A DNA stretch of 64,000 bases from an uncultured Methylomirabilota bacterium (GTDB taxonomy: Bacteria; Methylomirabilota; Methylomirabilia; Methylomirabilales; 2-02-FULL-66-22), in contig OY970067.1 of NCBI GenBank assembly GCA_963705305.1, positions 3,968,001-4,032,000 on the forward strand, in the 5' to 3' direction. The translations under genes were made by a program, and so were the position numbers. The notes under the pieces were generated by a model that saw only the letters and a program-made list of their open reading frames with translations, was not told the origin of the DNA and did no database searches. Within the stretch, counting starts at the first letter, position 1, and each line of letters opens with the position of its first letter. This document shows positions 2,991 through 31,602 of the stretch, in pieces.

Positions 2991-3225
2991 CGATTGCTCC
3001 AGGCCGCTCGCTCCAGACACCATTCGCCCATCGGCAGGGCCACGGCCCGGAAGGGGGCCGAGCATCTGCACTATGGTGTTTCCTCCAGAGGGCTGGCATC
3101 CCGCCTAGGGGCTGAGCGGCTATTGTGGATCGACCGTCTCCTCTATCGCCCCCATATCTTGGGCGCAGTCGAAGCAGTGCCGCAAATGGTAGCGCCGTCA
3201 GTCGGTCGTCCCACCTGGGGCGCTT

Positions 3226-3240
3226 CGGCATCAGACTTGC
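3226..3240 (+). promoter_or_regulatory. Putative sigma54 (-24/-12) promoter for the kinase-gvp operon
   Basis: CGGCATCAGACTTGC: GG-N10-GC with TTGC; downstream of an activator gene and 50 nt before the in-frame GTG 3290 preceded by GAGGG. Confidence 0.65.
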
Positions 3241-3289
3241 CTCTCCTCTTTCGCACAATCTTCCGGTGCGGGTCAGAGCGAGGGAAACA

Positions 3290-4607
3290 GTGCCCACTGT
3301 CGAGCGACGGACAAGCCTTCGGCTGGGAAAGCGCACGGCCCCTGAGAGCCGGAATATCCCGCTGGAGGTGCTGACCCACCTTCCCGCGTCCATTCTGATC
3401 ATTGCCTCGAACCTGGAGATCACGTTTGCCAACCGGAACTTCCTGGTCAAGTCGCGGAAGGAAGAGCACGAGGTCATCGGACGGCAGGTGCGGGAGATCT
3501 TCCCTCCGGTGATTCTCCGCTGGACGCACCTCGAGCGGCGCATTCGGAAGGTCTGCGAAACCGCTCTCCCGTTTGACGGCGGAGAAATGGAGTATCGCGC
3601 GCCGGGCCTTGCCCGTCGCGTTTACTTCTTCAGCTTGACGCCCCTCAATGCGAACGACGGCCAAGTGACGAGCGTCATGCTCTTCATGGATGACGTGACC
3701 GAGAAGAAAAGCCTGGGGGAGCGCATCCGGGAAGTGGAACGGCATCTCGCCAGTGTGGTGGAGAGCGCCCACGACCTCATCATCTCCCTGTATGCGACCG
3801 GCGCCGTCATGACTTGGAACGCCGCCGCCGAGCGGATCCTGGGATTCTCCCCTCCGGAGGTTGTCGGGAGGCCTTTTGCCGACCTCCTCTCCCCGGCAGA
3901 CTCTTCCGCGCTTGCCACCCTCTTCTCCACGCTGAACGGGGAGGCCAGCGTCCCTGAATTCGAGACGGCCACGAAGGCGAAGAACGGACGGGAGCTTTTC
4001 ATCTCCTGGCGCTTCTCGGCCATGCACGACGAGGATGGCCGGGTAGCCGCGCTGGTGGGGGTGGGGCGGGACCTCACGGAGAAGCGCCAGCTGGAGCTCC
4101 GGATGATCCAGTCGGCCAAGATGGCGGCCCTCGGTGAAATGGCCGGCGGCGTCGCGCACGAGATGCGGAACCCGCTCGCCATCGCCTCGTCCGCGGCGCA
4201 AATCCTCCTCAAGCGGGGAGATGATTGCCGCCTTCGGCAGGAGTGTGCCGAGAAGATCCACATGGCGGCGGGCAGGGCTGCGGTCATCATTGAAAACCTG
4301 TTGCGATTTGCGCGACCGTCGGAAGGGGAAGCGGAGCGCGTGGATGTCAACGCTGCGGTAGAGGAAACCCTCTCGTTGATCGGGTACCAGGTCTCGCTTC
4401 AATCCATCGAGGTGGAGAGACGACTTGCCCCCAGGCTCCCGAGGGTGAAAGGCAACAAGAACCAGCTGCAGTGGGAAGGGAACAGGGCTCGGCCTGTCGA
4501 TTGCCTACAGCATTGTCCAGCAACACGGAGGAGCAACCGTGGTGGAGAGCGAGCCAGGGAAAGGCTCGACCTTTACTGTTACTTTACCCGCCATCAGCGG
4601 AGAGTAA
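3290..4607 (+). pseudogene. PAS-PAS histidine kinase (GvrB-like) with an internally deleted, frameshifted HATPase domain
   Basis: H-box AHEMRNPL is intact. After NKNQLQ (4471) the N/G1/F boxes are missing; [20 protein letters not shown]...* continues in another frame to TAA 4607, while the original frame runs into the next receiver. Confidence 0.8.
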
Positions 4608-4612
4608 GGGAA

Positions 4613-5041
4613 ATGCTCGAGGTCTTGGTGGTCGATGACGAGGAAGACATCTGCTGGGCCTTGGAGAATGGCTTGGCGGATGAGGGAGTGCACATCACCC
4701 GCGTCCTCCGAGCAGAGGATGCCATCGAAGCTGTCCGGGTGGGGAGATTTGACGCGGCCATCATTGACGTCAAGCTTCCCGGCAAGAGCGGGATCGAGGT
4801 CTCCCGCGTTATCCGGCAACTCGCACCACAACTCTCGATCGTGATGATTTCGGGTTTCCACTACGAGGAGGATCAGCCCATCCAGGAAGGGCTGCGGCGC
4901 GGAGATTTCCAAGGCTTCATGAGCAAGCCCTTTGAGCTCGATGACCTCTCGGCGTTCCTGCGGCAGGTCGTCAAGGAAGCCGGGAGTGGCCCCTCCAGCT
5001 GGCGATCGGCCAGGGGGGGCAACCCGAGAGGAGGTGAGTGA
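4613..5041 (+). CDS. Single-domain response regulator (GvrC-like), now in frame with the truncated kinase
   Basis: [10 protein letters not shown]...IIDVKLP...FMSKPF; has its own ATG 5 nt after the ancestral kinase stop. Confidence 0.85.
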
Positions 5042-5043
5042 GC

Positions 5044-5259
5044 ATGGCAGTCGAGAAGACCATCGCATCGTCCAGTTTGGTGGAAGTCGTGGATCGGATC
5101 CTGGACAAGGGTGTGGTCATCGATGCCTGGGTGCGGGTGTCCCTGGTGGGCATCGAGCTCCTGGCCATCGAGGCCCGGGCCGTGGTGGCGTCCGTGGAGA
5201 CGTACCTCAAGTACGCTGAGGCCATCGGCCTGACCGCCACCGCCGCCGCGCCTGCGTAA
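5044..5259 (+). CDS. gvpA: Major gas vesicle structural protein GvpA
   Basis: [62 protein letters not shown], a canonical GvpA; strong GGAGG RBS. Confidence 0.98.
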
Positions 5260-5387
5260 AGCGGGACCGAGGCGCATGGAGGATCGATGCCGGGGCATCC
5301 TAGAGCGCAAGGCGCAAAGAGCATGTCCCGCCATCCCTCTTCCCTCCCACTTGTGAATGTCATGACAGCACACATGGAGGGTAGACA

Positions 5388-5753
5388 ATGGGATGGGCAA
5401 ATGAGATGGGCGGACTGACCCAGGAGATCGTAGCAGGACATACAGCACGATCAAACGAGCGGAAAGGTCGGCAGGCGAGCGTGGCGCGGTTCCTGTCAGA
5501 GACGGAGACCACTCGCAAGGGAGAATTCGAGAAGCTGCGCGGGCAGATCGTGGCCCAGCGGCAGAAGCGGAACCACCAGGTGGCTGGGATGCGCCAGGAC
5601 GCTGCGGTCCAGCTTGGTCGTTTCCAGCAGGAGGAAGCGCTCGCGCAGTCGCACTGGCTCGGCCTCGGCAAAACCCTGGCCAGAAGGCGTCCGGATAGTG
5701 GCCAGCAAGTGAGCGAACCCAAGACTTCTCGAAAGCGTGTGGCCAGCAACTGA
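5388..5753 (+). CDS. GvpC-like helical protein
   Basis: Lies between gvpA and gvpN; Q/R/E-rich amphipathic segments (RQASVARFLSETETTR). Confidence 0.6.
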   Translation: MGWANEMGGLTQEIVAGHTARSNERKGRQASVARFLSETETTRKGEFEKLRGQIVAQRQKRNHQVAGMRQDAAVQLGRFQQEEALAQSHWLGLGKTLARRRPDSGQQVSEPKTSRKRVASN

Positions 5754-5791
5754 ATGAAACCGAAACCTCCGGATAGAGGTCACGGGATGTC

Positions 5792-6487
5792 ATGATGACA
5801 ATACCAGCTCAGATGGACCGCCTCACGCACGAGATCATTGCATCCTACGAGGCCCGGGTCGCTTCGGTCGAACAGATCATCGATGCGGCGCACGACATAT
5901 TGGACATCTTCCGGCGTCAGGGGGAGGCGGTGCGGGCAGAACTCCGAGAGAGCCTGGCCAAGGCCGCCTCGCTCAGACGCCGGGATTTCGATACCCTGAT
6001 GCGAGGGGTCTTGGCGCGGCAGGAAGAGCAAGAGGAGGCGGTGAAACGGACGATCCGTGTCTACCTCCAGGAGCAGCGAGTGCGCGCGGCATCGCTCAGG
6101 GAAATCATGGCGGGGCGCAGCGCCCTGCAAGCGGAGAGCCTGACGGACGTTCTGACCACGACGCATGCGCACTGGGCGGCGCGAGAGCGGGAAGTCCGGA
6201 GCCTGTTAGCCGACTTCCAGCATGAGCAGGAGGAGTTGGCGCGTGCCCTGAAAGAGCTCCTCGCACGTCCCGAGACCGCCGGAGTCAAGGCGCTCAAGGC
6301 CACCCTGAGGAGCCTCCAGATCAGATCGAGTACATTCGTGACACGGCTGCGAGACGCCAGTGCACGCGGTGCGGCACCTGAGGAATCCGGCGAGGAAGAT
6401 CAGGGAGGGCCGGAGAAGCAGCGCGCCCGTTCGGAAACCGCGCCCCTTGCATTCGCTATGGCAGCCCTGGGAGAGCTTCATGATTGA
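5792..6487 (+). CDS. Second GvpC-like helical repeat protein
   Basis: N-terminus MDRLTHEIIASYEAR resembles the upstream ORF (MGGLTQEIVAGHTAR); repeated V...(I/L)..(Y/F)..EQ segments. Confidence 0.5.
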   Translation: MMTIPAQMDRLTHEIIASYEARVASVEQIIDAAHDILDIFRRQGEAVRAELRESLAKAASLRRRDFDTLMRGVLARQEEQEEAVKRTIRVYLQEQRVRAASLREIMAGRSALQAESLTDVLTTTHAHWAAREREVRSLLADFQHEQEELARALKELLARPETAGVKALKATLRSLQIRSSTFVTRLRDASARGAAPEESGEEDQGGPEKQRARSETAPLAFAMAALGELHD

Positions 6488-7400
6488 GGAACTGACCACG
6501 GTCTTTGAGCCGGCCCCCCTGGCGGATTTTGTGGAGACCGAGTATGTCGCCGATCTGACCCGGCGAGCCCTCGGGTACCTGCAGGCCGGCTTCCCCGTCC
6601 ACTTTCGCGGGCCCTCGGGCACCGGGAAGAGCACCCTGGCACTGCATGTGGCCTCGAGACTCGGGCGCCCCGTGGTCTTGCTGCATGGCAACGAAACCTT
6701 CACCACCTCGGATCTCATCGGCGGGGAAAGCGGCTATCACCTGCGCAAAGTGGTCGATCGCTTTGTCACCCGCGTCTTGAAGGTGGAAGAGGACATGTCT
6801 CCGCGCTGGATCGACAACCGGCTCACCATCGCCTGTAAATACGGCTTCACACTGGTCTACGACGAGTTCACGCGATCCCGGCCGGAGGCGAACAACATCC
6901 TGCTCTCGATCCTCCAAGAGCGCATCCTGGACCTACCGAGCGCCCGGGGGGGAGACGAGAATCTCCTCCGCGTGCATCCCGACTTCCGTGCGCTCTTCAC
7001 CTCGAACCCGGAAGAGTACGCCGGCGTGCATCGGAGCCAGGACGCCTTGCGCGATCGGATGATCACCCTCGATCTTGACCACTTCGATGCGGCCACCGAG
7101 ATCGGGATCGTGCAGGGCAAATCGGGCCTCCCGAGGAAGGATGCGGAAAGCGTCGTCCGCGTCGTCCGGGGGCTCCGGGAGTCGGGGGCGTGCGAGTTCC
7201 CGCCGACCATTCGGGGGGCCATCATGATTGCGAAGTCGCTCCGGACCCTCAATGGGCACGCACGACCGCTCTACCGGAACGCGACCTTCTTGCAGATCTG
7301 CCAGGACATCCTGGCTTCGGAGACGAGCCGGGTGGGGAGCAGGACTAACCAGACCAAGGTGCGAGAGCTGGTGAAACGATCAGTCAGGCAGCTCCGCTAG
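6480..7400 (+). CDS. gvpN: Gas vesicle MoxR-type AAA ATPase GvpN
   Basis: GPSGTGKS, WIDNRLT, YDEFTRSRPEANN, FTSNPEEYAGVH. Confidence 0.96.
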   Translation: MIEELTTVFEPAPLADFVETEYVADLTRRALGYLQAGFPVHFRGPSGTGKSTLALHVASRLGRPVVLLHGNETFTTSDLIGGESGYHLRKVVDRFVTRVLKVEEDMSPRWIDNRLTIACKYGFTLVYDEFTRSRPEANNILLSILQERILDLPSARGGDENLLRVHPDFRALFTSNPEEYAGVHRSQDALRDRMITLDLDHFDAATEIGIVQGKSGLPRKDAESVVRVVRGLRESGACEFPPTIRGAIMIAKSLRTLNGHARPLYRNATFLQICQDILASETSRVGSRTNQTKVRELVKRSVRQLR

Positions 7401-7461
7401 CCCTGCCGGGGATAGGCATCGAGCGCTGACGGGCGGAGGCTCGCGGAAGGAGCGGATCGTC

Positions 7462-7785
7462 ATGCGGGGCGTGATCGACATCGGAGGATTTCGAGACATC
7501 CGCAGGATGCAGAGCGCGGGATGTCGTTCCATCCCCAAACTGCAGACCTCCGGATACCTCGAACTGTACATGCTCCACAAGGAACGAGAGCGGCTCCTCA
7601 AGGAAGAGGCCATCCTCGCCCGACGCCACGAGAGGAACCGGAAGCGCCTGGCGGAGATCCAGGCCCAGATGCAGGGCATGGACGGAGTCGTCCAACCGGA
7701 TCCCTCAGCTCCGCCAACCAAGCGGAGAGGAAACGGCTCCAGCCACGGGAAGCGGACGTGGAAGACCGTCCCCTTGAACTACTAA
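7462..7785 (+). CDS. gvpV: GvpV-like protein
   Basis: YLELYMLHKERERL coiled coil directly after gvpN. Confidence 0.6.
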   Translation: MRGVIDIGGFRDIRRMQSAGCRSIPKLQTSGYLELYMLHKERERLLKEEAILARRHERNRKRLAEIQAQMQGMDGVVQPDPSAPPTKRRGNGSSHGKRTWKTVPLNY

Positions 7786-7797
7786 GAAGGAGTGCTC

Positions 7798-8844
7798 ATG
7801 GAGGCCCTGCACCTGTACTGCGTCGCCACCCCTGGCACACGCCTGGACGCTGATCTCATCGGTCTCGCCGAGCACCCCGTCTCCGTCATCCGTGAAAAAG
7901 ATCTGTTCGCATTGGTGAGCCCGGCACCCCAGCGGCCCTACAAGGCGATGCCACGGGGGGAGATCCTTCCCCTCCTGGCGACCCACCAGGCCGTCATCGA
8001 ACAGGCCATGACCTGCCTCACCGTGGTCCCGGTGAAGTTCGGCACCGTGGTTCGTGATGAACAGGAGGTCCGCAGGATCCTGCGGAAGGCCCGCGGCTGC
8101 TTTGCCTCCGCCCTCGAGGCCCTCGCCGGGAATGTGGAACTCGACGTGGTGGCGCAGTGGCGGTCCCTCGATGCGGTGTTGCAGCACATCGCGGAAGAGC
8201 CGCAGATTTCGTCCCAGCGCGCGGCGATCGCGAACCAGCCGTCCTCCGCGACCGTGGATCCGCGGATCCGGATTGGTATGCTGCTGAAGGCTCGGCTGGA
8301 TGCGCTGCGGGAAGCGCGGTCAATCGAGATCCTGAAGGCGCTCTCGCCATTCGTCCAGGATTCCTGCCGTCATGCCCTCGCGGGTGATCGGATGCTCTTC
8401 AACGCCGCGTTCCTGGTGGATCGGACGCAGGAGGCGGCATTCACGCGGGCCCTGGAGGCGCTCGATCGTGGCTACGCGGACGCGGTCGATTTCCGCTGTG
8501 TCGGGCCACTCCCTGCCTATAGCTTCTGCACCCTGGAAATCAAGACGTTCGAGGTAGCGGGGGTCGAACGTGCGCGACAGGTGCTGGGGATCGGGGAGGC
8601 GGCCGGGGCGCCGGAGGTCCGGGCGGCATACCGGCGGCAGGCCCACCAGTGGCACCCCGATCGTGTCACCCAAAACCGTGACCCGGCCTCCGGCGACCCG
8701 AATCCCGTGTTCCAGGCGCTGACGGACGCCTACCGGTACCTGGAAGCGTACCTCGAGGTTGGAAGCTCACTCCACCCGAACGATGTCCGCTCTGCGGTGG
8801 CCGTGACGCGGTACCAATGGGCGCAGGATGCCGCACGTGCCTGA
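7798..8844 (+). CDS. GvpF/GvpL-family protein with a C-terminal DnaJ J-domain
   Basis: HQAVIE, VVPVKFGT, NAAFLVD and VGPLPAYSF motifs, followed by ARQVLGI...EVRAAYRRQAHQWHPD. Confidence 0.88.
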   Translation: MEALHLYCVATPGTRLDADLIGLAEHPVSVIREKDLFALVSPAPQRPYKAMPRGEILPLLATHQAVIEQAMTCLTVVPVKFGTVVRDEQEVRRILRKARGCFASALEALAGNVELDVVAQWRSLDAVLQHIAEEPQISSQRAAIANQPSSATVDPRIRIGMLLKARLDALREARSIEILKALSPFVQDSCRHALAGDRMLFNAAFLVDRTQEAAFTRALEALDRGYADAVDFRCVGPLPAYSFCTLEIKTFEVAGVERARQVLGIGEAAGAPEVRAAYRRQAHQWHPDRVTQNRDPASGDPNPVFQALTDAYRYLEAYLEVGSSLHPNDVRSAVAVTRYQWAQDAARA

Positions 8845-9589
8845 ATACGGAAAGTACCTGTACGGCATCATCGCCGCCGACGAGGCGCGGAACTTCGGTC
8901 CCATCGGGATTGGGGGTCGAGAGGTGGAAACCATCCACCACCAACATCTCAGCGCGGTGATCAGCTCCATCCCGTTGCCCCAGTGTGTCCTCAGCAAAGA
9001 GAGCCTCCTGGCCCACGAGCGGGTCCTGGAGCGGGTGATGGCCGAATACACGGTCCTGCCGGTCAAGTTTTATACGGTCGGGGCCAACGTCGAGGAGATC
9101 CAACGTCTGATCGAGCTGCGGTATCAAGAGCTCCTGTTCGTGCTGCGTGACCTGGAGGGCAAGGTGGAGCTTGGGGTCAAGGCGACATGGCGCGAGATGC
9201 GCAGCGTGCTCCAGGAAATCGCGGGCGAGCACCCGGAAATCAAGCGCCTGAAGGAGAAGGCGGCCGAGAAGCCCCCGCACCCGAGCTATGCGGAAGGCGT
9301 CGCGATCGGGGAGATGGTCGCGGCCGCCCTCGAGGCAAAGAAAACCCAAGAGGCGGAGGTGATCCTGGCCGGGTTGCGGCGACTGGCGGTGAATTACCGG
9401 CTCAACCGTACCATCGGGGAGCGGATGCTCCTGAACGCCGCCTTCCTGGTCGATCGCGCCCGGGAGCACGAGTTCGATGCGGAGGTGGATCGGCTGGACC
9501 ATCGCCATGGCGGACGGACCAAGTTCACCTACGTGGGACCGGTCCCCCCCTACAACTTCGTCAACATCACCCTGCGGCCGGGCGACTGA
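8828..9589 (+). CDS. gvpF: GvpF/GvpL-family protein
   Basis: GKYLYGII, AHERVLE, GKVELGVK, NAAFLVD, GPVPPYNFV. Confidence 0.92.
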   Translation: MPHVPEYGKYLYGIIAADEARNFGPIGIGGREVETIHHQHLSAVISSIPLPQCVLSKESLLAHERVLERVMAEYTVLPVKFYTVGANVEEIQRLIELRYQELLFVLRDLEGKVELGVKATWREMRSVLQEIAGEHPEIKRLKEKAAEKPPHPSYAEGVAIGEMVAAALEAKKTQEAEVILAGLRRLAVNYRLNRTIGERMLLNAAFLVDRAREHEFDAEVDRLDHRHGGRTKFTYVGPVPPYNFVNITLRPGD

Positions 9590-9607
9590 GTCGGCGAGGA
9601 CCCTTGC

Positions 9608-10351
9608 ATGGGAAAGTACATTTACTGCATCACCGAGGCCCCCGAGGGGGAGCATTTCGACGCGGCAGGGATCGATGGACCCGGGGCGGAGGTGGCGGCC
9701 CTCGCTTTCGATGGGATTGCCGCAGTGGTGAGCGAGGCACCCGTCAAGCGCTATCGCGTCTGCCGCGAGAATGCCCTCGCGCACGAGTGCGTGATCGAAG
9801 CGGTTTTCGCCCGTCACCCTGTGCTCCCCGTCCGATTCTGTACGATCGCCCAGGATGAGGCGACGGTGCGGACCATCCTCGAGCGTGAGCTCGCGGAGTT
9901 CCGGAGGATGCTGGAGCATATGCGGGGACGGATGGAGATCGGGGTGAAAGCCATCTTCCCGGAGGCTCGGATTTACCAGACGATCCTGGACCGCCATGAG
10001 GAGATCCGGCGCCGGAAGCAGGCCGTGGCATTGCTGCCGCCGCAGCAGGCGCACTGGCAGCTCCTCGCGATCGGGAAGATGGTGGAAGAGGCCCTGGTGC
10101 GAGAGAAAGCCGCCGTGCGAGAGGAGATCCTCCAGAGCCTGGAAGGGGCGGCCTGCGAGTGCCGCGTGAGCGAGCGCCTGATGGGCGAGCGGATGATCGT
10201 CAATGCCGCCTTCCTGGTGGAGCGGGCGTCCGAGCCGGAGTTCGATCGGCGATTGAATGCCCTGGCCGACCGCTACGCGGACCTGGTCACCTTCAAGTGC
10301 GTGGGGGACGCCCCCCCGTTCAACTTCGTGGACCTGGTCGTCGCGATATAG
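9608..10351 (+). CDS. gvpF: GvpF/GvpL-family protein
   Basis: GKYIYCI, AHECVIE, VLPVRFCT, NAAFLVE, PPFNFV. Confidence 0.92.
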   Translation: MGKYIYCITEAPEGEHFDAAGIDGPGAEVAALAFDGIAAVVSEAPVKRYRVCRENALAHECVIEAVFARHPVLPVRFCTIAQDEATVRTILERELAEFRRMLEHMRGRMEIGVKAIFPEARIYQTILDRHEEIRRRKQAVALLPPQQAHWQLLAIGKMVEEALVREKAAVREEILQSLEGAACECRVSERLMGERMIVNAAFLVERASEPEFDRRLNALADRYADLVTFKCVGDAPPFNFVDLVVAI

Positions 10352-10358
10352 CGCGCCT

Positions 10359-10625
10359 ATGCTCCTCGTGGACGATCTCCTCGCGCTTCCGTACCGGGGC
10401 CTACTAGGTGTGTTCCAGAAGATCGCCGAACTGGCCGACCGGGAGCTGAACGATGCGGAGTTCCTCCAGGAGAAGCTCCTCGAGCTCCAATTGCTCTACG
10501 AGATGGATGAGCTCGGCGAGGAGGAGTACGCGCTGAAAGCCGCGGTGTTGGAGACCAGGCTCAATGCTGTCAGGGAGGCGGAGGAGGTCGAGCCGGAAAC
10601 CGAAGAGGGAGATGCTGAAGCGTGA
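10359..10625 (+). CDS. gvpG: Gas vesicle protein GvpG
   Basis: MLLVDDLLALPYRGL...LLELQLLYEMDELGEEEY, following gvpF. Confidence 0.9.
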   Translation: MLLVDDLLALPYRGLLGVFQKIAELADRELNDAEFLQEKLLELQLLYEMDELGEEEYALKAAVLETRLNAVREAEEVEPETEEGDAEA

Positions 10626-10684
10626 CCGTGGAGAGATGCCCAGTTGGTTGTCCAACAACGGCTGCCGCGGGGGAAGAGGGACGG

Positions 10685-10963
10685 ATGGAATTCAATGAGG
10701 TCAGAAGGATCGCGACCTACTTCCTCAAACGACCCCTTCAAAAGGACGGGGCACCGGTCAGGATCGACAAGACGTATGAGGGGTGGGAGGTCCAGTTCGG
10801 GGCGATCGAGCCCACCGTCTGTATTCGAACGCTGGGGATCCCTGCCTCCGTCCGTGGCCGTTTCCTTGATGTGATCACGCTGGGTGGCGGGCTCCAGACC
10901 CTGTCGGGCGAGCGGCTCGCCTCTGGTACGGAGTCCGCCCGCGCCTCCTCTCGGACCGCATAG
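10685..10963 (+). CDS. Divergent GvpO/GvpR-like protein (possibly decaying)
   Basis: KTYEGWEVQ...IRTLGIP pattern and position inside the gvp operon. Confidence 0.45.
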   Translation: MEFNEVRRIATYFLKRPLQKDGAPVRIDKTYEGWEVQFGAIEPTVCIRTLGIPASVRGRFLDVITLGGGLQTLSGERLASGTESARASSRTA

Positions 10964-10975
10964 GGGCCATTGACC

Positions 10976-11275
10976 ATGCCCTCATCATCGGCGATCTCGC
11001 ACAGCGTGCAGAGCACCAACCTGGCCGACATCCTCGAGCGGGTCCTGGACAAGGGGATCGTCATCGCCGGGGATATTAAGATTAACATCGCCGACATCGA
11101 GCTGCTCAGCATCAAGATCCGGCTCCTCGTGGCTTCGGTGGAGAAGGCCAGGGAGATGGGGATTGATTGGTGGCAGAGCGATCCGGCCCTGTCCTCGAGG
11201 GCCAAGAGCCTTGAGGAAGAGAATCGGCAGCTCCACGAGCGACTGGATCGGCTAGAGGCCCGCCTTGGCGGGTGA
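10976..11275 (+). CDS. gvpJ: Gas vesicle protein GvpJ
   Basis: LADILERVLDKGIVIAGDI...IRLLVASVEKAREMGIDWW. Confidence 0.93.
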   Translation: MPSSSAISHSVQSTNLADILERVLDKGIVIAGDIKINIADIELLSIKIRLLVASVEKAREMGIDWWQSDPALSSRAKSLEEENRQLHERLDRLEARLGG

Positions 11276-11286
11276 GGGAGGCAGCC

Positions 11287-11802
11287 ATGCGCAAACGGGT
11301 GGAACGCGGGGGGCTCGGCCTGGGCGATCTTTTTCACGGGGTCGCAGATCTCATTGATCTCCTCAAGGAGATGGAGGCGGAGGGGAAGACCGAGCGCACC
11401 CGCACCGGCGAGATCACAGGCAGCGGGCAATTGAAGGACCTGAAGGGGGTCTATGGGTTCAGCGTAAAGGTCGGCCTCGGCGGCACCCCGACGGTCGAGA
11501 CTTTCGGGAACATTCGCAAGAGCGAAACGGGGCCGGTGGTCGAAGAGGTGCGTGAGCCCCTGGTGGACCTCTTCGATGAAGGAGACGTCATGCGGGTGAT
11601 CGCGGAACTCCCCGGGGTGGAGTCGACGGACATCGCGACCGAGCTGGAGGGCGACATCCTCACCATCACCAGCCGGGGCAAGGCGCACAAGTACCAGAAG
11701 GAGGTCCTCCTGCCCTCCAAGGGACAGGCGGACTCGCTGAAGACCAGCTATCGGAACGGCATTCTGGAGATCACGCTGCGGAAGACCAGGGACGGCGCAT
11801 GA
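11287..11802 (+). CDS. gvpH: Hsp20/alpha-crystallin protein (GvpH-like)
   Basis: VYGFSVKVG, REPLVDLFDE, IAELPGV, YRNGILEITL. Confidence 0.85.
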   Translation: MRKRVERGGLGLGDLFHGVADLIDLLKEMEAEGKTERTRTGEITGSGQLKDLKGVYGFSVKVGLGGTPTVETFGNIRKSETGPVVEEVREPLVDLFDEGDVMRVIAELPGVESTDIATELEGDILTITSRGKAHKYQKEVLLPSKGQADSLKTSYRNGILEITLRKTRDGA

Positions 11803-12782
11803 AACTCGTCCTGTTCGGCGGCAAGGGAGGCGTCGGGAAGACCACGTGTGCCGCGGCAGCCGCGCTTGAGCTGGCCGGCGCCGGCCATCGGACGCTCCTG
11901 GCCTCGACCGATCCGGCCCACTCTCTCTCTGACGCCCTGGAGCAGGAGATTGGTCCCGAAATCCAGGCGGTGAACGGGGTCCAGAACCTCTTTGCGCTGG
12001 AGATTTCTGCTGAAAGCCTGTTCCGGAAGTTCAAGGCAGACCACGGGGCGGAGTTGCGGCACCTCCTCGTAACCGGCACGTATCTCGACGCGGAGGATCT
12101 GGACGACCTCTCGTCCCTCTCCATCCCCGGCCTCGATGAGGTGATGGCGCTCAAGGAGCTCGTGGACCTGATGGAGTGCAGCGCGTACGAGTATTACCTC
12201 CTGGATACCGCCCCCACGGGCCACGCCCTCCGCCTCCTCGCGCTCCCTGACCTCGTCGAGCAGTGGATCCGCGTCCTGGCGCGGCTCCGGTACAAGTACC
12301 TCGCCATGATCCGCAGCATCGCCCAGCGCGAGATTCATGAGACGGCGGACGACTTCCTGTTCAGCCTGAAGCGAGGCGTGCGGCGCGTCCAGGAACTCCT
12401 CCACGACCCGGAGCGCTGCGAGTTCCTGGTCGTCGGGCTTCCTGAAGCGATGGTGATCGCCGAGACCCGGCGTCTTCTCCAGGAACTGAGCCGCCAGCAG
12501 ATTCCCGTCCGGCACCTCCTCGTGAATCATGTCGCCTCCAGCGAGCGGGGAACGTGCCCCTTCTGTCACGAGCGCTGGCAGGCCCAGCGGAAAGTCCTCC
12601 AGGAATATTCGGCGTCCTTCGCGGCGCTCAAGGTCTACAACCTCTTGGAGCGCCCGCACCCGATCCGGGGCCTTGCGCAACTGCGAGAGCTCGGATTCCC
12701 CATTCGGTGGCTGGAGCGGGAGCGCTCTGCAGGGGCAAGCGCGGGCATCGAGGATCAGGCATGGGTACTCCACACACGGTGA
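11799..12782 (+). CDS. Single-domain ArsA/Get3-family ATPase
   Basis: GGKGGVGKTT, STDPAHSLSD, PGLDEV, DTAPTGH and a CPFC motif. Confidence 0.92.
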   Translation: MKLVLFGGKGGVGKTTCAAAAALELAGAGHRTLLASTDPAHSLSDALEQEIGPEIQAVNGVQNLFALEISAESLFRKFKADHGAELRHLLVTGTYLDAEDLDDLSSLSIPGLDEVMALKELVDLMECSAYEYYLLDTAPTGHALRLLALPDLVEQWIRVLARLRYKYLAMIRSIAQREIHETADDFLFSLKRGVRRVQELLHDPERCEFLVVGLPEAMVIAETRRLLQELSRQQIPVRHLLVNHVASSERGTCPFCHERWQAQRKVLQEYSASFAALKVYNLLERPHPIRGLAQLRELGFPIRWLERERSAGASAGIEDQAWVLHTR

Positions 12783-14896
12783 CATTGCGGGTGGCGGAAG
12801 CGCTGCCCAAAGATGTGGGGCGCGGGATCGCGCGCCTGGATCCCGAGGACATGAAGGCCCTCGAAATCGAGGTGGGCGACATCGTCCAGGTCCAGGGGAA
12901 ACGCCAGACCGTGGCCAAGGCCATGCCCGCCTTCCAGGAGGCCAGAGGGAAGGGGATCGTCCAGGTCGACGGCCTTGTCCGGACCAATGCCCAGGTGGGG
13001 CTGGACGAGCGGGTGGCGATCGCCAGGGACGAGGCCAGACCGGCCGTGAAGCTGACCCTCGCGCCTCTCTCCTCCCAACGCATAAGCCAGCGCGAGCCGG
13101 ACACCCGCTACCTTGCGCGCCTCCTGGAGGGGCTTCCGCTCATCGCCGGCGACCGTATCCGCGCCGTGCTCTTCGGCACCATGGCCCAGGAGTTCACGGT
13201 GGTTGAAACTGCCCCCACCGGCCCGGTGGTCGTCCGGGCGGCCACCGCCCTCCGCCTGCACCATCCCGAAGGCCCCGGCGAGACTTCCCAGATCTCGTAC
13301 GAAGACATCGGGGGGCTTCGGCGAGAGATCCAGCGCGTGCGAGAGATGATCGAGCTCCCCCTGAAGTACCCCGAAGTCTTCGAGCACCTGGGGATCAAGG
13401 CGCCGAAGGGCGTGCTCCTCCACGGGTCACCCGGCACCGGTAAGACACTCATCGCGAGGGCTGTGGCGAACGAGACCGAGGCGCGGTTCTTCGCCGTGAG
13501 TGGTCCCGAGGTCATCCACAAGTTCTACGGTGAGTCGGAGGCCAAGCTCCGGCAACTCTTCGAGGAGGCCGAGCGGCATGCTCCGAGCATCATCTTCCTG
13601 GATGAGATTGACGCCATCGCCCCCAAGCGCGAGTCGGTGGTGGGGGAGGTAGAGAAACGGGTGGTGGCGCAGCTCCTCGCCCTGATGGATGGACTCCGGT
13701 CCCGCGGTCAGGTGATCGTGATCGGGGCGACGAACATCCCGAATGCACTGGACCCCGCCCTGCGCCGGCCGGGCCGTTTCGATCGCGAGATCGCCATTGG
13801 GATCCCCGACAAAGGGGGGAGGCGGGAAATCCTGGAGATCCACACCCGGGGGATGCCGCTGGCGGAGGACGTGGACCTGGACGAGCTCAGTGAGTCCACC
13901 CACGGGTTCGTGGGCGCGGATCTGGAGGCCCTCTGCCGGGAGGCAGCCATGGCCGCGCTCCGAGCTTTGCTCCCGCGGATCACGTTCGAGGTTGGAGCCA
14001 TTCCCTACGAGGCCGTCATGGAACTCCGGGTCCATCGGACCCATTTCTTCGAGGCGATGAAGGAGGTCGAGCCCTCGGCCCTGCGGGAGATCAGTGTGGA
14101 GGTCCCGGACGTCCGGTGGGGGGACGTCGGCGGATTGGAGAATGTGAAGCGCGAGCTCGTGGAGGCCGTCGAGTGGCCGCTCCGCTATGCGGCGCTCTTC
14201 AGCCATGCGGGTGCCCGGCCGCCCCAGGGGATCTTGCTCCATGGAGCGCCCGGCAGCGGAAAGACGCTGCTGGCCAAGGCCCTGGCCACCGAGAGCCGGG
14301 CCAACTTCATTGCCATCAAGGGCCCCCAGCTGATGTCCAAATGGGTGGGAGAGAGCGAACGCGCGATCCGGGAGATCTTCAAAAAGGCCAAGCAAGCCGC
14401 CCCCTGCGTGGTCTTCCTGGACGAGGTGGACGGCCTGGCCCCCCGGCGGGGACTGGATCCATCCGGCGTGGCGGAACGAGTCCTGAGCCAGTTGCTCACC
14501 GAGCTGGATGGCATCGAAGAGCTGCGCGGTGTGGTGGTGCTGGCGGCCACAAACCGGCTGGATCTCGTGGAGCCGGCCCTCGTGCGGCCGGGGCGATTCG
14601 ACTCCGTCATCGAGGTATCCTTGCCCGACACGAAAGCGAGGCTCGAGATCTTCACGATCCACACTCGCAAGCAGCGGCTGGCTCCCGACGTGGACTTGAC
14701 GGTGCTGGCCAGGCAAAGTCAGGGGCTCTCCGGCGCGGAGATTGAGGCTACCTGTCGGAGGGCAACGATGATGGCGATCCGGGAGTACCTGGAGGCTTAC
14801 CCAAACGGGGCGGATTCCGGGTTCCAGGAATATGCGGTGCGAATGGCTCGTTTGGAGGAGGCGCTGACGAGCTTCCGGAAAGGACGTGTGGGATGA
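12761..14896 (+). CDS. CDC48/p97/VAT-family AAA+ ATPase
   Basis: N domain (VAEALPKDVGRGIAR), D1 (YEDIGG, GSPGTGKT, IIFLDE) and D2 (WGDVGG, GAPGSGKT, VVFLDE). Confidence 0.95.
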   Translation: MGTPHTVTLRVAEALPKDVGRGIARLDPEDMKALEIEVGDIVQVQGKRQTVAKAMPAFQEARGKGIVQVDGLVRTNAQVGLDERVAIARDEARPAVKLTLAPLSSQRISQREPDTRYLARLLEGLPLIAGDRIRAVLFGTMAQEFTVVETAPTGPVVVRAATALRLHHPEGPGETSQISYEDIGGLRREIQRVREMIELPLKYPEVFEHLGIKAPKGVLLHGSPGTGKTLIARAVANETEARFFAVSGPEVIHKFYGESEAKLRQLFEEAERHAPSIIFLDEIDAIAPKRESVVGEVEKRVVAQLLALMDGLRSRGQVIVIGATNIPNALDPALRRPGRFDREIAIGIPDKGGRREILEIHTRGMPLAEDVDLDELSESTHGFVGADLEALCREAAMAALRALLPRITFEVGAIPYEAVMELRVHRTHFFEAMKEVEPSALREISVEVPDVRWGDVGGLENVKRELVEAVEWPLRYAALFSHAGARPPQGILLHGAPGSGKTLLAKALATESRANFIAIKGPQLMSKWVGESERAIREIFKKAKQAAPCVVFLDEVDGLAPRRGLDPSGVAERVLSQLLTELDGIEELRGVVVLAATNRLDLVEPALVRPGRFDSVIEVSLPDTKARLEIFTIHTRKQRLAPDVDLTVLARQSQGLSGAEIEATCRRATMMAIREYLEAYPNGADSGFQEYAVRMARLEEALTSFRKGRVG

Positions 14897-15264
14897 GGGG
14901 CAATATTCTCCTGGTGGAGCCGGAGGAGGCCACAGCTCGTTCCCTGGCAGCGATTCTCACCCGGGCGGAGTTCACGGTCCTCACCGCCGAGACGGGCCAC
15001 GAAGCCCTGCGCCTGGTGCACCGGGAGCCGCCGGATCTCATCATCCTGGATCTGGAGCTCCCAGGAATGGACGGCCTTGAGACGCTCCGGCAGCTCCGAG
15101 AGCACGGCGTGACGGCGAAGGTCATGATCCATGCGGCTCATGGGACGCCCCGGCATGCCAGGGAGGCACGGGCGCTGGGGGCCCGGGAGTTCCTCGGCAA
15201 GCCCTTCGACGTGCACCGACTCCTCTGCATTGTGAACGGGGAGGTCGGGGAACGGGTGATGTAG
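14893..15264 (+). CDS. Single-domain response regulator
   Basis: IILDLELPGMDG and FLGKPF; acidic pocket atypical (VEPE). Confidence 0.8.
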   Translation: MRGNILLVEPEEATARSLAAILTRAEFTVLTAETGHEALRLVHREPPDLIILDLELPGMDGLETLRQLREHGVTAKVMIHAAHGTPRHAREARALGAREFLGKPFDVHRLLCIVNGEVGERVM

Positions 15265-15896
15265 TGAGTGTCCCAGAGGCGAGACGGCTCATCTATATCC
15301 CCATCATCCACGATCTGGCGGATATGGGGACCAAGGCTGAGCCGTTGAAACAGGCATTCATCCGCCGCTTCGGCCTTGATCAGTGGGAGCGCCGCCGTGC
15401 GCTCATCGCCGATGTCTGGGGAGGCATCCGGCAGAAACTGCTGGGTCGGGATCTCCCTTGGGACCGCGTGCGGATCTACCAGGACGGGCTTCCGATTTCG
15501 GGAAAAGAGCTGGAGATCGCGAGCGATGTGGCCGTGCAGGGGAGCCAGAATTACCGGCTGGTGCTAGAGTTGGTGGGGAAAGGTGCCACGCTGATGGGGA
15601 CGGAATCACCGGACCTCCTACTCCGGGAGTACCGGCTGATCAGCCGGATGGTCGAGGCGCACCCCGTGGTGCAGCCGGACACCGCCGGTCGGGAGTCCGA
15701 TGCGGAAGCGCAGGAGATCCTCGGTGCCCGGGATGCATTCATTGCCCGCCGGGTCTCCGACACCTTGGGCAACGCCGGTATCGGCGTTCTCTTCCTCGGC
15801 ATGATGCATCAGGTGGATCAACTCCTTCCCAAAGATATTGCGGTCGAATTCCTCATCGATCGACTTCCCCTGTGGGAGGTGGCAGCGGAGGACTGA
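15264..15896 (+). CDS. Hypothetical protein of the gas vesicle operon
   Basis: Translationally coupled on both sides; LIYIPIIH..ADMG and IYQDGLP motifs; function unknown. Confidence 0.7.
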   Translation: MSVPEARRLIYIPIIHDLADMGTKAEPLKQAFIRRFGLDQWERRRALIADVWGGIRQKLLGRDLPWDRVRIYQDGLPISGKELEIASDVAVQGSQNYRLVLELVGKGATLMGTESPDLLLREYRLISRMVEAHPVVQPDTAGRESDAEAQEILGARDAFIARRVSDTLGNAGIGVLFLGMMHQVDQLLPKDIAVEFLIDRLPLWEVAAED

Positions 15897-16699
15897 TGGC
15901 CCCTGCGATCGGCTGGTACCTGTACGCCTTGTTCTCTCCAGCAACGCTGCCGCCGATGAACGGCATTGACGGCGTGTCGCCGGTCTGCCTCTTCGCCTGG
16001 GCGGACGTTGGGGCCCTCTTTAGCTCAGTCCCGCTGGCTGAATTTGGCGAGGAGGCCCTTCAGCGAAATATACAGGATACTCGCTGGCTGGAGGAGAAGG
16101 TGCGGCACCATGAAGCCGTGGTCGAGGCGGCCATGCGCACAGGGCCAGTCCTCCCCATGAAGTTTGGCACGATCTTCGTCGACTTGAAGAAGATCGGCGA
16201 CCTGATCAAAGACAACGCCCCTACGCTCCGCGCTTCTCTTGAAGAGCTCCGCGACAAGGAGGAGTGGGGAGTGCGCGGATTCGCGAACCGGGTGATCCTC
16301 CGGGCCGCGACCCTTCAGCACGACCCCGCCCTCCGAGCCCTATCCGAAGCGGCGAGCGCCCAATCGCCAGGGCAGGCCTTTTTTCTCAGGAAGCGAGTTG
16401 AAGCGCTGGCCTCGACGCGATCTCAAGACCGGAGGCAGGCGCTTGTGCTTGAAGCGCGCGCGACGATCCAGACGACGGTCGTGGCACTGGCAGACCAGCG
16501 TCCCCTGATCACCGATGCGTCAGGGGACGAGGAGATTGTCTTAAACATGGCCTGTCTCGTGCGGCAAGAGGGTGTCGGATCCTTCCTCGCTGCCGCGAAC
16601 CAGTGGAACCAGAACCATGGTGGGGAAGGACCGCGGCTTGTCGCCTCCGGGCCCTGGCCCCCCTATCACTTTGTCCCGAGGCTCGAAGGAAGTGGATAG
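15896..16699 (+). CDS. gvpL: GvpL/GvpF-family protein
   Basis: HHEAVVE, PVLPMKFGTIF, KEEWGVR, SGPWPPYHFV. Confidence 0.9.
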   Translation: MAPAIGWYLYALFSPATLPPMNGIDGVSPVCLFAWADVGALFSSVPLAEFGEEALQRNIQDTRWLEEKVRHHEAVVEAAMRTGPVLPMKFGTIFVDLKKIGDLIKDNAPTLRASLEELRDKEEWGVRGFANRVILRAATLQHDPALRALSEAASAQSPGQAFFLRKRVEALASTRSQDRRQALVLEARATIQTTVVALADQRPLITDASGDEEIVLNMACLVRQEGVGSFLAAANQWNQNHGGEGPRLVASGPWPPYHFVPRLEGSG

Positions 16700-16898
16700 A
16701 AACGAATCGGCACCCAGTCTGGAACGGCAGGTGACGCTCCTGGAGACGCTGGATCGCCTCCTCAACAAGGGGGTAGTCGTGGCCGGAGACGTGACGCTCT
16801 CGGTGGCGGACGTTGACCTGATCTACCTCGGCCTTCGACTCTTGCTCTCCTCGGTAGAGACCGCAAGAGCGCGGAGCGCTACAAGTGTCAGGGAGTGA
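16692..16898 (+). CDS. GvpA-family minor protein (GvpM/GvpS-like)
   Basis: TLLETLDRLLNKGVVVAGDVTLSVADVDLIYLGLRLLL. Confidence 0.88.
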   Translation: MDRNESAPSLERQVTLLETLDRLLNKGVVVAGDVTLSVADVDLIYLGLRLLLSSVETARARSATSVRE

Positions 16899-16901
16899 GC
16901 T

Positions 16902-17630
16902 GTGGATGGGTTCTATTTCTATGGCGTCGTCAGGCGGCCGGAACTCGCACCGTGTCGAGTCTGCGGCCTTGGCGGCAGTCCCACGCTCTTCATCCCGTTT
17001 CGAGACCTCGCAGCAGTCGTTAGCCTATCTCGTCTCTCTCCCTGGCCTGCGGATGAGACACATCTGAACCTCCACGAAGCTGTCGTGGAGGAGCTAATGC
17101 GTTCCCAGCCCATCCTCCCGGCCCGCTTCAACACCTTCCTACCCACCGAGGAGGCGACCATCCGCCTCCTCCAGGAAAGGGGGCAGGAATTCCACGTCAC
17201 CATCGAGCGCGTCAAGGGAAAGGCCGAGCTGGGGCTCCGCATCCTTTGGGACCCGCCGGGCGATCCCGTGATGCCCGAGGGTCAGCCTGTAGCGACAGAG
17301 GAACCTGGGAGCGAGTATCTGAGACGGCGCACCCAGCAGGAGCAGCGTCGCAGGGCACAACGCCGCGAGGGCGAGGCGCTGATCCGGTCGCTCCACGGGG
17401 CACTCCAGCCGCTGGCTTCAGAATTCCGGCTGCGTTCATTCCTCAGCAACCGGTCCCTCTTTGCCGCGGCCTATCTCGTGGAGCAGGAGCGTCTTGGTGC
17501 GTTTCACGAATCTGTGGAAGAAAGACTTGCGGAGTCTCCGCAGCTTGGGTTTCTTCTCACTGGTCCCTGGCCTCCTTATAGCTTCGTCAATGGAGTCGAA
17601 AATGGGATCGCAAATCGTCTCCGTCTCTGA
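16902..17630 (+). CDS. GvpF/GvpL-family protein
   Basis: HEAVVEELM, ILPARF, GKAELGLR, TGPWPPYSFV. Confidence 0.9.
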   Translation: MDGFYFYGVVRRPELAPCRVCGLGGSPTLFIPFRDLAAVVSLSRLSPWPADETHLNLHEAVVEELMRSQPILPARFNTFLPTEEATIRLLQERGQEFHVTIERVKGKAELGLRILWDPPGDPVMPEGQPVATEEPGSEYLRRRTQQEQRRRAQRREGEALIRSLHGALQPLASEFRLRSFLSNRSLFAAAYLVEQERLGAFHESVEERLAESPQLGFLLTGPWPPYSFVNGVENGIANRLRL

Positions 17631-17946
17631 GGGCTCGCTGACGGATTTCGAGGGGGAGTTGGGCCGCCTCACCGATGCGCTCCCGTCGAGGGTCAATGCG
17701 GATCCCGAGCGGGTGGAACAGGGGCTGGCCAAGTTGGTGCTCACCCTCATCGAACTCCTGCGCGGCCTGCTTGAAAAGCAGGCCATCCGGCGCGTCGAGG
17801 GGGGCTCACTCACGCCGGAGGAGATTGAGCGCATGGGCCTCACGTTCCTGCGACTCGAGCGGAGGATGGCCGAGCTTCGAGATCACTTCGGCCTCAGCCA
17901 GGAAGACCTCACCCTGTCGCTCGGGTCACTCGGAGAGCTGAGGTGA
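17602..17946 (+). CDS. gvpK: Gas vesicle protein GvpK
   Basis: GLAKLVLTLIELLRGLLEKQAIRRVEGGSL...FGL...DL..SLG. Confidence 0.95.
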   Translation: MGSQIVSVSEGSLTDFEGELGRLTDALPSRVNADPERVEQGLAKLVLTLIELLRGLLEKQAIRRVEGGSLTPEEIERMGLTFLRLERRMAELRDHFGLSQEDLTLSLGSLGELR

Positions 17947-19327: not shown

Positions 19328-19690
19328 ATGAGCACGCAGGAAAAGGGATCGGGGATGAAGAAAAAGACCCTGCAATCTAGCCGCAAGAGAACCTCCGCGC
19401 GGTCTACCCCTTCCTCTCAGTGGGACCTCCGACTGTATGTCGCGGACGGGACTCCACGGGGCCTCGCTGCCATTGGCAATCTCAAGCGCTTGTGCGAGAC
19501 CCACCTGAAGGGCAGGTACCGACTTGAGGTGATTGATCTGTTAGAGCATCCGCAGCTCGCGAGCGGTGACCAGGTCACGGCTATTCCGACCCTCGTCCGG
19601 AGACTCCCGCCCCCCGTGCGGAAGATCATCGGGGACCTGTCGAATGGTGAGGACGTACTCGTGAGGCTGGATTTGCGCCCAAGGAAATGA
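19328..19690 (+). CDS. kaiB: KaiB-family protein
   Basis: LRLYVA, GRYRLEVIDLLEHPQLA, AIPTLVRRLPPPVRKIIGDLSN; start 19328 or 19355. Confidence 0.93.
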   Translation: MSTQEKGSGMKKKTLQSSRKRTSARSTPSSQWDLRLYVADGTPRGLAAIGNLKRLCETHLKGRYRLEVIDLLEHPQLASGDQVTAIPTLVRRLPPPVRKIIGDLSNGEDVLVRLDLRPRK

Positions 19691-19805
19691 GGCGAGGAAG
19701 TCCCCGGAAGGAGTCGCCACGTCACGGGGCAATTGCGGCCGGCGCTATGTGGACGGTCTCCCGGAAGGCAGGAAGGCGTGTGACAATGTTTACGCCTGGA
19801 CGACG

Positions 19806-28514: not shown

Positions 28515-28532
28515 ATGTGAGGAGGGACAAAG

Positions 28533-28940
28533 GTGCCGCCCCGCGTGCTTGTGGTTGAAGATAACCCCGTGAATCTGGAGCTGCTGATCGCCCTCCTGGA
28601 GGAGGAGGGCTGCCAGGCCCTCGGTGCGACCTCGGCCGCGACGGGCCTGCAGCTCGCGGCGGCCGAGCGACCCGTCCTCATTCTGATGGATGTCCAGCTT
28701 CCCGGCATGACGGGCTACGAGGCCACCCGCTGGCTCAAGGCCGACCCGCTCACGGCGGCAATTCCCGTGGTGGCGATCACGGCGCAGGCCATGCGGGGCG
28801 ATGACGCGAAGGCGCGTGAAGCCGGGTGCGATGCCTACCTGACGAAGCCGATGGAAACGCACGCGTTCCGCGAGATCTTGCGCCGATTCATCGGGACCCC
28901 GAGAAGCGAGGGAGACGGGGACCAAGGGACAAAGGGATAG
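28533..28940 (+). CDS. Single-domain (DivK-like) response regulator
   Basis: VLVVEDN, ILMDVQLPG, GCDAYLTKP. Confidence 0.92.
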   Translation: MPPRVLVVEDNPVNLELLIALLEEEGCQALGATSAATGLQLAAAERPVLILMDVQLPGMTGYEATRWLKADPLTAAIPVVAITAQAMRGDDAKAREAGCDAYLTKPMETHAFREILRRFIGTPRSEGDGDQGTKG

Positions 28941-29004
28941 CGGAAGCAAGGAACCGCGCAGCTTCCCTCCCAGGGCTGCTCACTCGCGGAAGGAGAGGCG
29001 ACCC

Positions 29005-29879: not shown

Positions 29880-30061
29880 ACATCTGCATCTCGATGTCTC
29901 GTTTCAGGGGAGACGGAGGTGCACTCGGGCGCAGACTCCACGCGAAAACGGCCACGCCGTTACGACCCGACGACAACCCATGGCGCGACGAGGCCGATCC
30001 GGAGTGGGGGGAGAAGGATGACGCGCACCGACCTCGCTGGCCGGACCAGGGAGGGATGAGG

Positions 30062-31444: not shown

Positions 31445-31602
31445 CCGCAGCCAGACTTCGCGATCCTGCCAGATCCGCAGCCCTCCAAGGTCCCGGCCAC
31501 CGATTCGTCGGGGTATTCCCAGACCGAGGCGGATTCCAGAACTCCTTGCCAATCCTCGCCCCGGTCCAGGCAGGGCAGAGCCTGGTCTTTCTCATGCCCC
31601 CT

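Follow-up and report, generated by a model that had tools for sequence, protein, structure and literature searches.

Why does an operon for gas vesicles also carry genes for chaperones and an unfoldase? The question is raised by a 64,000-nucleotide stretch of DNA from an uncultured Methylomirabilota bacterium (contig OY970067.1), here called the window. Positions 5044–17946 form one co-directional gas vesicle (gvp) operon on the + strand, in which hsp20, a Get3-like arsA, and cdc48 lie among the vesicle genes and one GvpF carries a J-domain. How cells keep the shell protein GvpA soluble, and whether vesicles get dismantled, are open questions on which the operon bears. An earlier, sequence-only reading had proposed a dedicated pathway that chaperones GvpA or recycles vesicles. 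We find that the module is real, conserved, and partly undescribed, its arsA and hsp20 part being already known. At a probability of roughly 0.55, it would form a quality-control line dedicated to GvpA, GvpJ, and GvpM, the presumed clients, during vesicle building. Published work is cited here from excerpts of the papers named.

The module genes

The operon is the sole gvpA-family locus of the 5.6-Mb genome; a GvpA-family match occurs in 80 of 251 genomes of the host's phylum. GvpA with its A/J/M paralogues, GvpF/L, GvpG, GvpK, and GvpN all lie in this one cluster (five GvpF/L, three A/J/M, one gvpG, and one gvpK by Pfam). The order is gvpA, two genes in the GvpC position, gvpN, a gene in the GvpV position, the GvpF–J fusion, two GvpF/L genes, gvpG, a diverged gvpO, gvpJ, hsp20, arsA, cdc48, a response regulator gene, a gene that we call U, gvpL, gvpM/S, gvpL, and gvpK. 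The sequence-only reading had the gene list right, every gene that it named being present and intact on the + strand; it left unmentioned the response regulator and U, between cdc48 and gvpL. The gvpA product has the same sequence as in two related loci (L084 and L114).

The J-domain noticed earlier on one GvpF/L protein was confirmed by profile search (PF00226, 31.4 bits; cut-off, 27.8). Its HPD motif is invariant in 38/38 aligned fusions and in 80/80 GvpF–J loci. In the structure model, the GvpF fold is followed by predicted J-type helices (residues 253–263, 271–285, and 303–321) with the HPD in a loop. The model resembles the GvpF crystal structures 6L5D (E 4e-15) and 4QSG; J-domain structures are weak matches. 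The closest named homologues include those of Ca. Methylomirabilis limnetica and NC10 bacteria. Work on model systems shows that GvpF binds GvpA monomers, and proposes it as their chaperone (PMC9501494, PMC11445434); haloarchaeal GvpH keeps GvpM from aggregating (PMC6107691), and GvpA2 without a chaperone aggregates and kills E. coli (PMC12848028). Because of these properties, the J-domain fused to GvpF is best read, by analogy, as recruiting Hsp70 to shell subunits. The host genome has two dnaK genes elsewhere, and 19 of the fetched gvp loci contain one.

A DnaJ-type zinc-finger protein was found in 27 of 44 long GvpF–J loci. Stand-alone proteins with the CxxCxGxG motif of DnaJ occur in gvp clusters at L065 (3202–3606) and 43 other loci, as though DnaJ had been divided there between GvpF–J and a separate zinc-finger gene; no such gene was found in the window.

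The window Cdc48 scores 941.6 with TIGR01243 (cut-off, 802.65) and has the composition of the Cdc48/p97/VAT family, with PF02359, PF02933, two PF00004 domains, and aromatic pore loops. Both sets of Walker A and B motifs, the pore loops, and the arginine fingers are intact. Of 129 gvp-linked relatives, 126 keep both Walker A motifs and 119 both arginine-finger motifs. The median length of gvp-linked Cdc48s is 708 residues versus 751 for housekeeping ones, a difference of about 40 residues. Docking to the proteasome depends on a C-terminal HbYX motif, which we scored as a penultimate tyrosine. This tyrosine is present in 25 of 31 housekeeping proteins versus 0/128 gvp-linked ones, and the window protein, which ends in ...KGRVG, also lacks it. 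The host genome encodes proteasome subunits. By the HbYX rule, the window Cdc48 would unfold its substrates and let them go instead of docking on the 20S core.

The Cdc48 trees are unrooted, and no donor lineage is claimed. A branch with 100% support in the Shimodaira–Hasegawa-like approximate likelihood ratio test (SH-aLRT) has the housekeeping archaeal-type Cdc48s on one side. All gvp-linked Cdc48s are on the opposite side, together with a long-branched paralogue of the host genome. This second host Cdc48 (L234, G000 near 1049000–1051000) is not linked to gvp genes and is also without the tail tyrosine; most genomes of the genus contain copies with similar scores. Near methanogen gvp clusters there are three copies of a tyrosine-bearing Cdc48, on the opposite strand and with the same tail; of these, L212 was placed in the tree and falls in the housekeeping clade. 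The archaeal Cdc48/VAT proteins, and the HSP20–CDC48 pair under Phr/HSR1 control (PMC5852551), share with the window the N-D1-D2 architecture, the archaeal-type Hsp20, and the adjacency of the genes. The window Cdc48 differs from them in its separate branch, shorter length, missing C-terminal tyrosine, and location within a gvp operon.

Hsp20 is above the cut-off for the archaeal Hsp20 family (NF041800, 147 vs 140) and for PF00011, and has an alpha-crystallin domain. With the GvpH family PF05455 it reaches 16.9 bits (cut-off, 22); its Methylosinus homologue is annotated gvpH. Paralogues of Hsp20, DnaK, and Cdc48 are encoded in the host genome apart from the gvp operon.

The ArsA protein is of the Get3/TRC40 type. 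Its P-loop, with a deviant Walker A, and switch I and II motifs are intact, and it has a TRC40 insert and a CxxC at residues 253–256; among the ArsA-type sequences of the fetched loci, 53 of 60 have the CxxC. The stretch between switch II and the strand that follows counts 66 residues, compared with approximately 50 and 46 in the arsenical ArsA of Halobacterium, and the helix 7–9 region is 16–20 residues longer than in arsenical ArsA. Only 3 methionines lie between residue 71 and the end of helix 9. Among PDB structures, the best matches are ArsA1 from algae and putative Get3-type ArsA proteins from archaea. A role in arsenic resistance was rejected: the protein has a single domain, scores 130.9 against 650 for the pump family TIGR04291, lacks the cysteine motifs of Halobacterium ArsA, and has a separate position in the tree. 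Like Get3/TRC40 (PMC6593721), it combines a single domain with the insert length and CxxC and is without the arsenic-site cysteines; tail-anchored clients and Get1/2 partners are hypothetical for it. Bacterial Get3 homologues with a TRC40 insert have been suggested to be general chaperones (PMC6593721). A tandem pair of single-domain ArsA-family genes without CxxC, not linked to gvp genes, was seen at L235 (G000 near 2509400–2511200).

For U, the model (predicted local distance difference test, pLDDT, 90.7) has a predicted parallel beta-sheet core of the TIKI fold. It aligns with ChaN (Z 9.9, root-mean-square deviation 3.5 over 155 residues), HopBA1 (Z 8.3), and EreC (Z 6.5). PF01963 (TraB/PrgY/GumN) gives weak matches in 48 of 89 homologues, with a best E of 7e-5. 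Twelve residues are invariant over the 89 sequences, including H16, D74, N96, R156, D157, and H182. Compared with a 2His/2Glu site, the alignment offers two invariant histidines, an invariant aspartate and arginine, and a near-invariant glutamate as candidates. U thus resembles the TIKI/TraB/ChaN/EreA superfamily (PMC6254334) in its predicted sheet core and invariant His, Asp, Arg-Asp, and His, and is unlike it in its 10–11% identity to the top structures and weak Pfam matches. That superfamily holds peptidases, esterases, and inactive members (PMC6254334). One search gave 710 homologues, and among the 120 listed none is named beyond "hypothetical". Foldseek returned no match at E ≤ 0.001, and the Atlas returned unnamed clusters only.

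The five module genes are under purifying selection, judged from ratios of nonsynonymous to synonymous substitutions (dN/dS) that are rough because synonymous divergence is close to saturation. Against three relatives, the ratios are 0.14–0.21 for cdc48, 0.23–0.35 for hsp20, 0.24–0.34 for U, and 0.39–0.54 for GvpF–J; against two relatives, arsA gives 0.25–0.26.

The start and stop codon overlaps that the sequence-only reading had pointed out exist (hsp20/arsA, −4; arsA/cdc48, −22), and cdc48 also overlaps the response regulator gene (−4). These overlaps are not special, as 9 of the 19 operon junctions overlap, and among relatives hsp20 and arsA overlap in 5 of 41 pairs and arsA and cdc48 in 13 of 43. 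We therefore put little weight on them and rejected translational coupling as a sign of a module.

Linkage to gas vesicle clusters

Linkage was surveyed from three sides. A search of GTDB with a GvpF–J alignment gave the module-anchored set (best 80 of 141 loci), and a search of metagenomes with the window Cdc48 gave the Cdc48-anchored set (best 80 of 559 loci, some of them near-duplicates). The gvp-anchored set was built from GvpA or GvpK families in nine phylum samples; Cyanobacteria and Pseudomonadota were seen on plasmids only. For the gvp-anchored set, 118 regions were fetched: from the host's own phylum 25 regions chosen for long contigs out of 79 positive genomes, and from the other phyla all gvpK matches minus seven centre genomes, two sub-cut-off matches, and G1136. 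We kept 95 regions with A/J, F, G, and K (71 bacterial, 24 archaeal) and dropped 23 partial ones; some regions are cut off, so gene absences are upper bounds.

In the module-anchored set, cdc48 lies immediately upstream of gvpF(J) in 56/80 loci, and hsp20–arsA–cdc48–gvpF(J) is contiguous in 25/80. The 44 loci of at least 12 kb contain Cdc48 in 39 cases, Hsp20 in 38, ArsA in 31, and all three in 29. According to the record titles, these loci come from Planctomycetota, Nitrospirota, Omnitrophota, Ignavibacteria, Chloroflexota, Elusimicrobiota, Latescibacterota, Methanoperedens, and others. In the Cdc48-anchored set, core gvp genes are present in 52/80 loci and Hsp20 in 73/80. Where at least 5 kb of flank is available (45 loci), 39 have core gvp genes, 42 Hsp20, 38 U, 14 ArsA, and 14 GvpF–J; in the other six, core gvp genes are not in view. 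The linkage that the sequence-only reading expected of such a survey is therefore supported in both directions (29/44 and 39/45).

Its four genes are not a fixed unit. They occur together in 13 of the 95 gvp-anchored clusters (13/71 bacterial, 0/24 archaeal), and ArsA is independent of Cdc48, being present in 19/30 bacterial clusters with Cdc48 versus 26/41 without. A two-domain ArsA after gvpG was found in 11 clusters with Cdc48 and 26 without it; the single-domain type was seen only with Cdc48 (8/8). The other parts follow Cdc48, which is present in 30/71 bacterial clusters: Hsp20 (27/30 vs 2/41), U (20/30 vs 1/41), GvpF–J (19/30 vs 4/41), and GvpN (26/30 vs 3/41). The tighter unit is Hsp20–Cdc48 plus U, with GvpF–J frequent. 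Gene order varies between lineages, yet the set stays together. U was also found beside methanogen gvp clusters (6/24 archaeal). Since Cdc48 switches state just 3 times across the 58-cluster tree, leaving 2–3 independent contrasts, these counts describe one inherited cluster type, and repeated co-evolution is unsupported.

Plasmids carry parts of the set. A Methylosinus plasmid has gvpH–U–cdc48 without J or ArsA, a Methylocella plasmid hsp20–U and a split AAA gene, and an Octadecabacter plasmid Hsp20 and GvpF–J without Cdc48 or ArsA. In Nostoc sphaeroides (plasmid, L352:11743–13584), a two-domain arsA at the end of the gvp cluster is followed by a 600-residue double-AAA ATPase without a Cdc48 N-domain match. 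None of the module parts was seen in the gvp cluster of a Spartinivicinus plasmid. On the Octadecabacter plasmid, U stands alone amid insertion sequence (IS) elements. A second widespread cluster type (L088–L103, L243–L246, L261–L263, L288–L292) has no GvpN, Hsp20, or Cdc48 in view; it usually contains a two-domain ArsA together with an internal regulator.

Proposed quality control and rival readings

In the quality-control line, GvpF would capture GvpA fresh from synthesis and, through its J-domain, bring in the cell's DnaK, a gene for which lies in the cluster of some relatives. Hsp20 and a Get3-like dimer would hold exposed hydrophobic segments. A Cdc48 hexamer would pull out subunits that have misassembled and set them free in unfolded form, without feeding them to the 20S proteasome, and U may cut subunits beyond rescue. 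The line would probably be an aid to efficiency and viability, not an essential step of assembly. The earlier interpretation is supported in part, by the linkage, the intact motifs, the purifying selection, and the separate Cdc48 lineage; its claims of an undescribed system and of a fixed four-gene unit were overstated.

Several observations weigh against quality control. The gene sets listed for B. megaterium and Halobacterium contain no Cdc48, ArsA, or J-domain, yet both build vesicles (PMC9501494). In Serratia, deletion of gvpH leaves vesicle shape and stability unaffected (PMC4982088), and deletion of gvpZ preserves vesicles in the native host; both deletions lower the signal in E. coli (PMC10344784). 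Cdc48 is absent from 41/71 bacterial clusters, and ArsA, as described above, ignores it. The co-evolution test is uninformative, with 2 independent pairs when supported branches alone are counted and 3 when all are. Finally, judging from its sequence, this copy of the operon may be silent because its upstream kinase is broken, or the kinase deletion may be an assembly error.

The module may instead serve dismantling and recycling, which we consider on balance unlikely. Cdc48 would strip collapsed or surplus vesicles of their GvpA, or remove GvpC from the vesicle surface, so that buoyancy is lost on demand; Hsp20 and J/DnaK would take up the freed subunits, and U would cut them. Cdc48/p97 proteins are segregases, which suits this role. 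Cdc48 is found in 26 of 29 GvpN-positive (elongation-competent) and 4 of 42 GvpN-negative bacterial clusters, and U tracks it (20/21 U-positive clusters). A response regulator adjoins cdc48, and the predicted fold of U, with its invariant His/Asp/Arg/His, is shared with peptidases and esterases. However, the module lies in the apparent transcript of gvpA: sigma-70 promoter and terminator scans gave signals at chance level, with no separate promoter or terminator signal above it for the module genes. In addition, Cdc48 is without the docking tail, the J-domain sits on the protein that binds monomeric GvpA in model systems, and the activity of U is only predicted, some TIKI-fold proteins being inactive. 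A narrower version, in which tail-less Cdc48 and U form a segregase–peptidase pair that is loaded by GvpF–J/DnaK and dismantles the stable GvpA shell, is doubtful. If true, gas-vesicle disassembly and regulated buoyancy loss would have their first known machinery.

We also doubt that the genes are a passenger stress cassette, in which an archaeal-type hsp20–cdc48 pair joined an ancestral gvp lineage and guards the general proteome without a Gvp client. The archaeal score of the window Hsp20 fits such an origin, as do the co-induction of HSP20 and CDC48 by archaeal Phr/HSR1 regulators (PMC5852551), the adjacency of housekeeping cdc48 and hsp20 in 3 non-gvp archaeal loci (L184, L301, L304), the few switches of Cdc48 on the cluster tree, and the Cdc48 relatives without a core gvp gene in view. 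On the other hand, the J-domain is covalently joined to GvpF with its HPD kept throughout, the set survives rearrangements, a search for a CIRCE element found none, and the genome owns separate Hsp20, DnaK, and Cdc48 paralogues. Least likely are unrelated jobs outside any shared proteostasis pathway, with the Get3-like ATPase driving or positioning nucleation, Hsp20 acting as an ordinary GvpH, and Cdc48 helping GvpN to remodel the growing seam; the indifference of two-domain ArsA to Cdc48, the partial sets on the Octadecabacter and Methylosinus plasmids, and the proposal that ArsA powers a step of biogenesis other than that of GvpN (PMC2963123) speak for them, and the restriction of single-domain ArsA to Cdc48 clusters and the contiguous four-gene runs against.

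Part of the module had been described. Castillo and Saier 2010 (PMC2963123) report gvp clusters from several phyla that contain arsA and hsp20, with arsA in those of Anabaena variabilis and Nostoc PCC 7120, and propose Hsp20 as a chaperone and ArsA as energising. The ArsA treated there has two domains and about 600 residues, unlike the single-domain CxxC protein of the window. The excerpt does not mention DnaJ, and its AAA and DnaJ passages place neither Cdc48 nor a J-domain in gvp clusters; the window has both. Serratia sp. ATCC 39006 (PMC4982088, PMC10344784) shares with the window an NtrC-type activator (GvrA) with two further regulators, several GvpF, GvpV, and GvpH. Its GvpZ directly follows gvpH, parallel to gvpH–U–cdc48 on the Methylosinus plasmid, and on gene order U is possibly GvpZ. 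The Serratia excerpt names no ATPase besides GvpN (PMC4982088), whereas the window adds Cdc48 and ArsA. In haloarchaea, the anti-aggregation effect of GvpH on GvpM and the binding of GvpA by GvpF (PMC9501494, PMC6107691) are the holdase roles proposed here. The sampled clusters of haloarchaeal layout (L196–L209) have no Cdc48, ArsA, or J-fusion, and the window Hsp20 is below the GvpH Pfam cut-off. In the open-access literature, we found no description of a gvp-linked Cdc48 or of GvpF–J; subscription journals were outside the search.

Aggregation of GvpA restricts the use of gas vesicles as E. coli ultrasound reporters (PMC12848028), and the operon supplies cloneable candidates: GvpF–J, the tail-less Cdc48, U, and the single-domain Get3. 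The idea is directly testable in the cultured methanotroph Methylosinus sp. C49, the owner of the gvpH–U–cdc48 plasmid. If the genes are dispensable, the finding reduces to an accessory gene set in one cluster lineage.

Regulation and surrounding genes

The PAS histidine kinase gene upstream of gvpA (3125–5041) is broken near 4471, where 191 nucleotides are lost relative to L009; the window has 1 nucleotide where this intact relative has 192. Most of the HATPase domain is gone, and the frameshift creates an in-frame fusion with the downstream response regulator. Among the matches listed in run X1, which gave 24 contig pieces at least 99% identical, none bridges the deletion. In Serratia, the regulator gvrB is necessary for vesicles; the PAS kinase would be its counterpart here, an equivalence that we infer. 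A sequence scan that allowed at most one mismatch found no sigma-54 consensus. The coordinates of all features are collected below.

Features of the gvp operon and its upstream regulators (window coordinates)
Feature	Position	Strand	Basis
Upstream regulators: NtrC-type sigma-54 activator, then damaged PAS histidine kinase	1581..5041	+	Pfam
gvpA, major shell protein, 71 residues	5044..5259	+	NF006874, 132.8 bits (cut-off 100)
Helical protein 1 in GvpC position, putatively GvpC-like by position	5388..5753	+	Homologues in related loci; no Pfam match
Helical protein 2 in GvpC position, putatively GvpC-like by position	5792..6487	+	Relatives' homologues between gvpA and gvpN; no Pfam match
gvpN, AAA+ ATPase	6480..7400	+	TIGR02640, 329.6 bits, above cut-off
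Conserved 107-residue gene, putative GvpV by position	7462..7785	+	Homologues 3' of gvpN in many loci
GvpF with C-terminal J-domain fusion, HPD 286–288	7798..8844	+	PF06386 and PF00226
GvpF/L	8828..9589	+	PF06386
GvpF/L	9608..10351	+	PF06386
gvpG	10359..10625	+	PF05120
Diverged GvpO-like gene	10685..10963	+	Aligns with conserved homologues; no Pfam match
gvpJ-type A/J/M protein	10976..11275	+	PF00741
Small heat-shock protein in Hsp20/GvpH slot, archaeal type, 171 residues	11287..11802	+	NF041800, PF00011
arsA, single-domain Get3/TRC40-like ATPase	11799..12782	+	TIGR00345
Cdc48/VAT-type N-D1-D2 unfoldase, 711 residues, without C-terminal tyrosine motif	12761..14896	+	TIGR01243
Single-domain response regulator	14893..15264	+	PF00072
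U, conserved, 210 residues, predicted TIKI/TraB (ChaN/EreA-like) fold, putative hydrolase	15264..15896	+	Structure model, weak PF01963
GvpF/L	15896..16699	+	PF06386
gvpM/S-type A/J/M protein	16692..16898	+	PF00741
GvpF/L	16902..17630	+	PF06386
gvpK	17602..17946	+	PF05121

The gvpO-like gene has many changes at conserved and motif positions in an alignment with conserved homologues, and it was not found in the relatives L084, L085, and L114. Some close relatives without it have a small zinc-ribbon gene in the gvpO slot. A Volactin-family actin-like gene lies within the gvp clusters L015, L022, L029, L031, L059, L060, L062, and L065.

Downstream of the operon there is a KaiB-like gene, followed by a dense series of PAS/GAF kinases, an HD-domain response regulator, and sigma-54 regulators (19328–36715). 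Resolvase, IS4-like transposase, and integrase-core genes (40338–44209) lie between this signalling island and a cluster for an oligopeptide ATP-binding cassette (ABC) transporter and a D-amino-acid oxidase.

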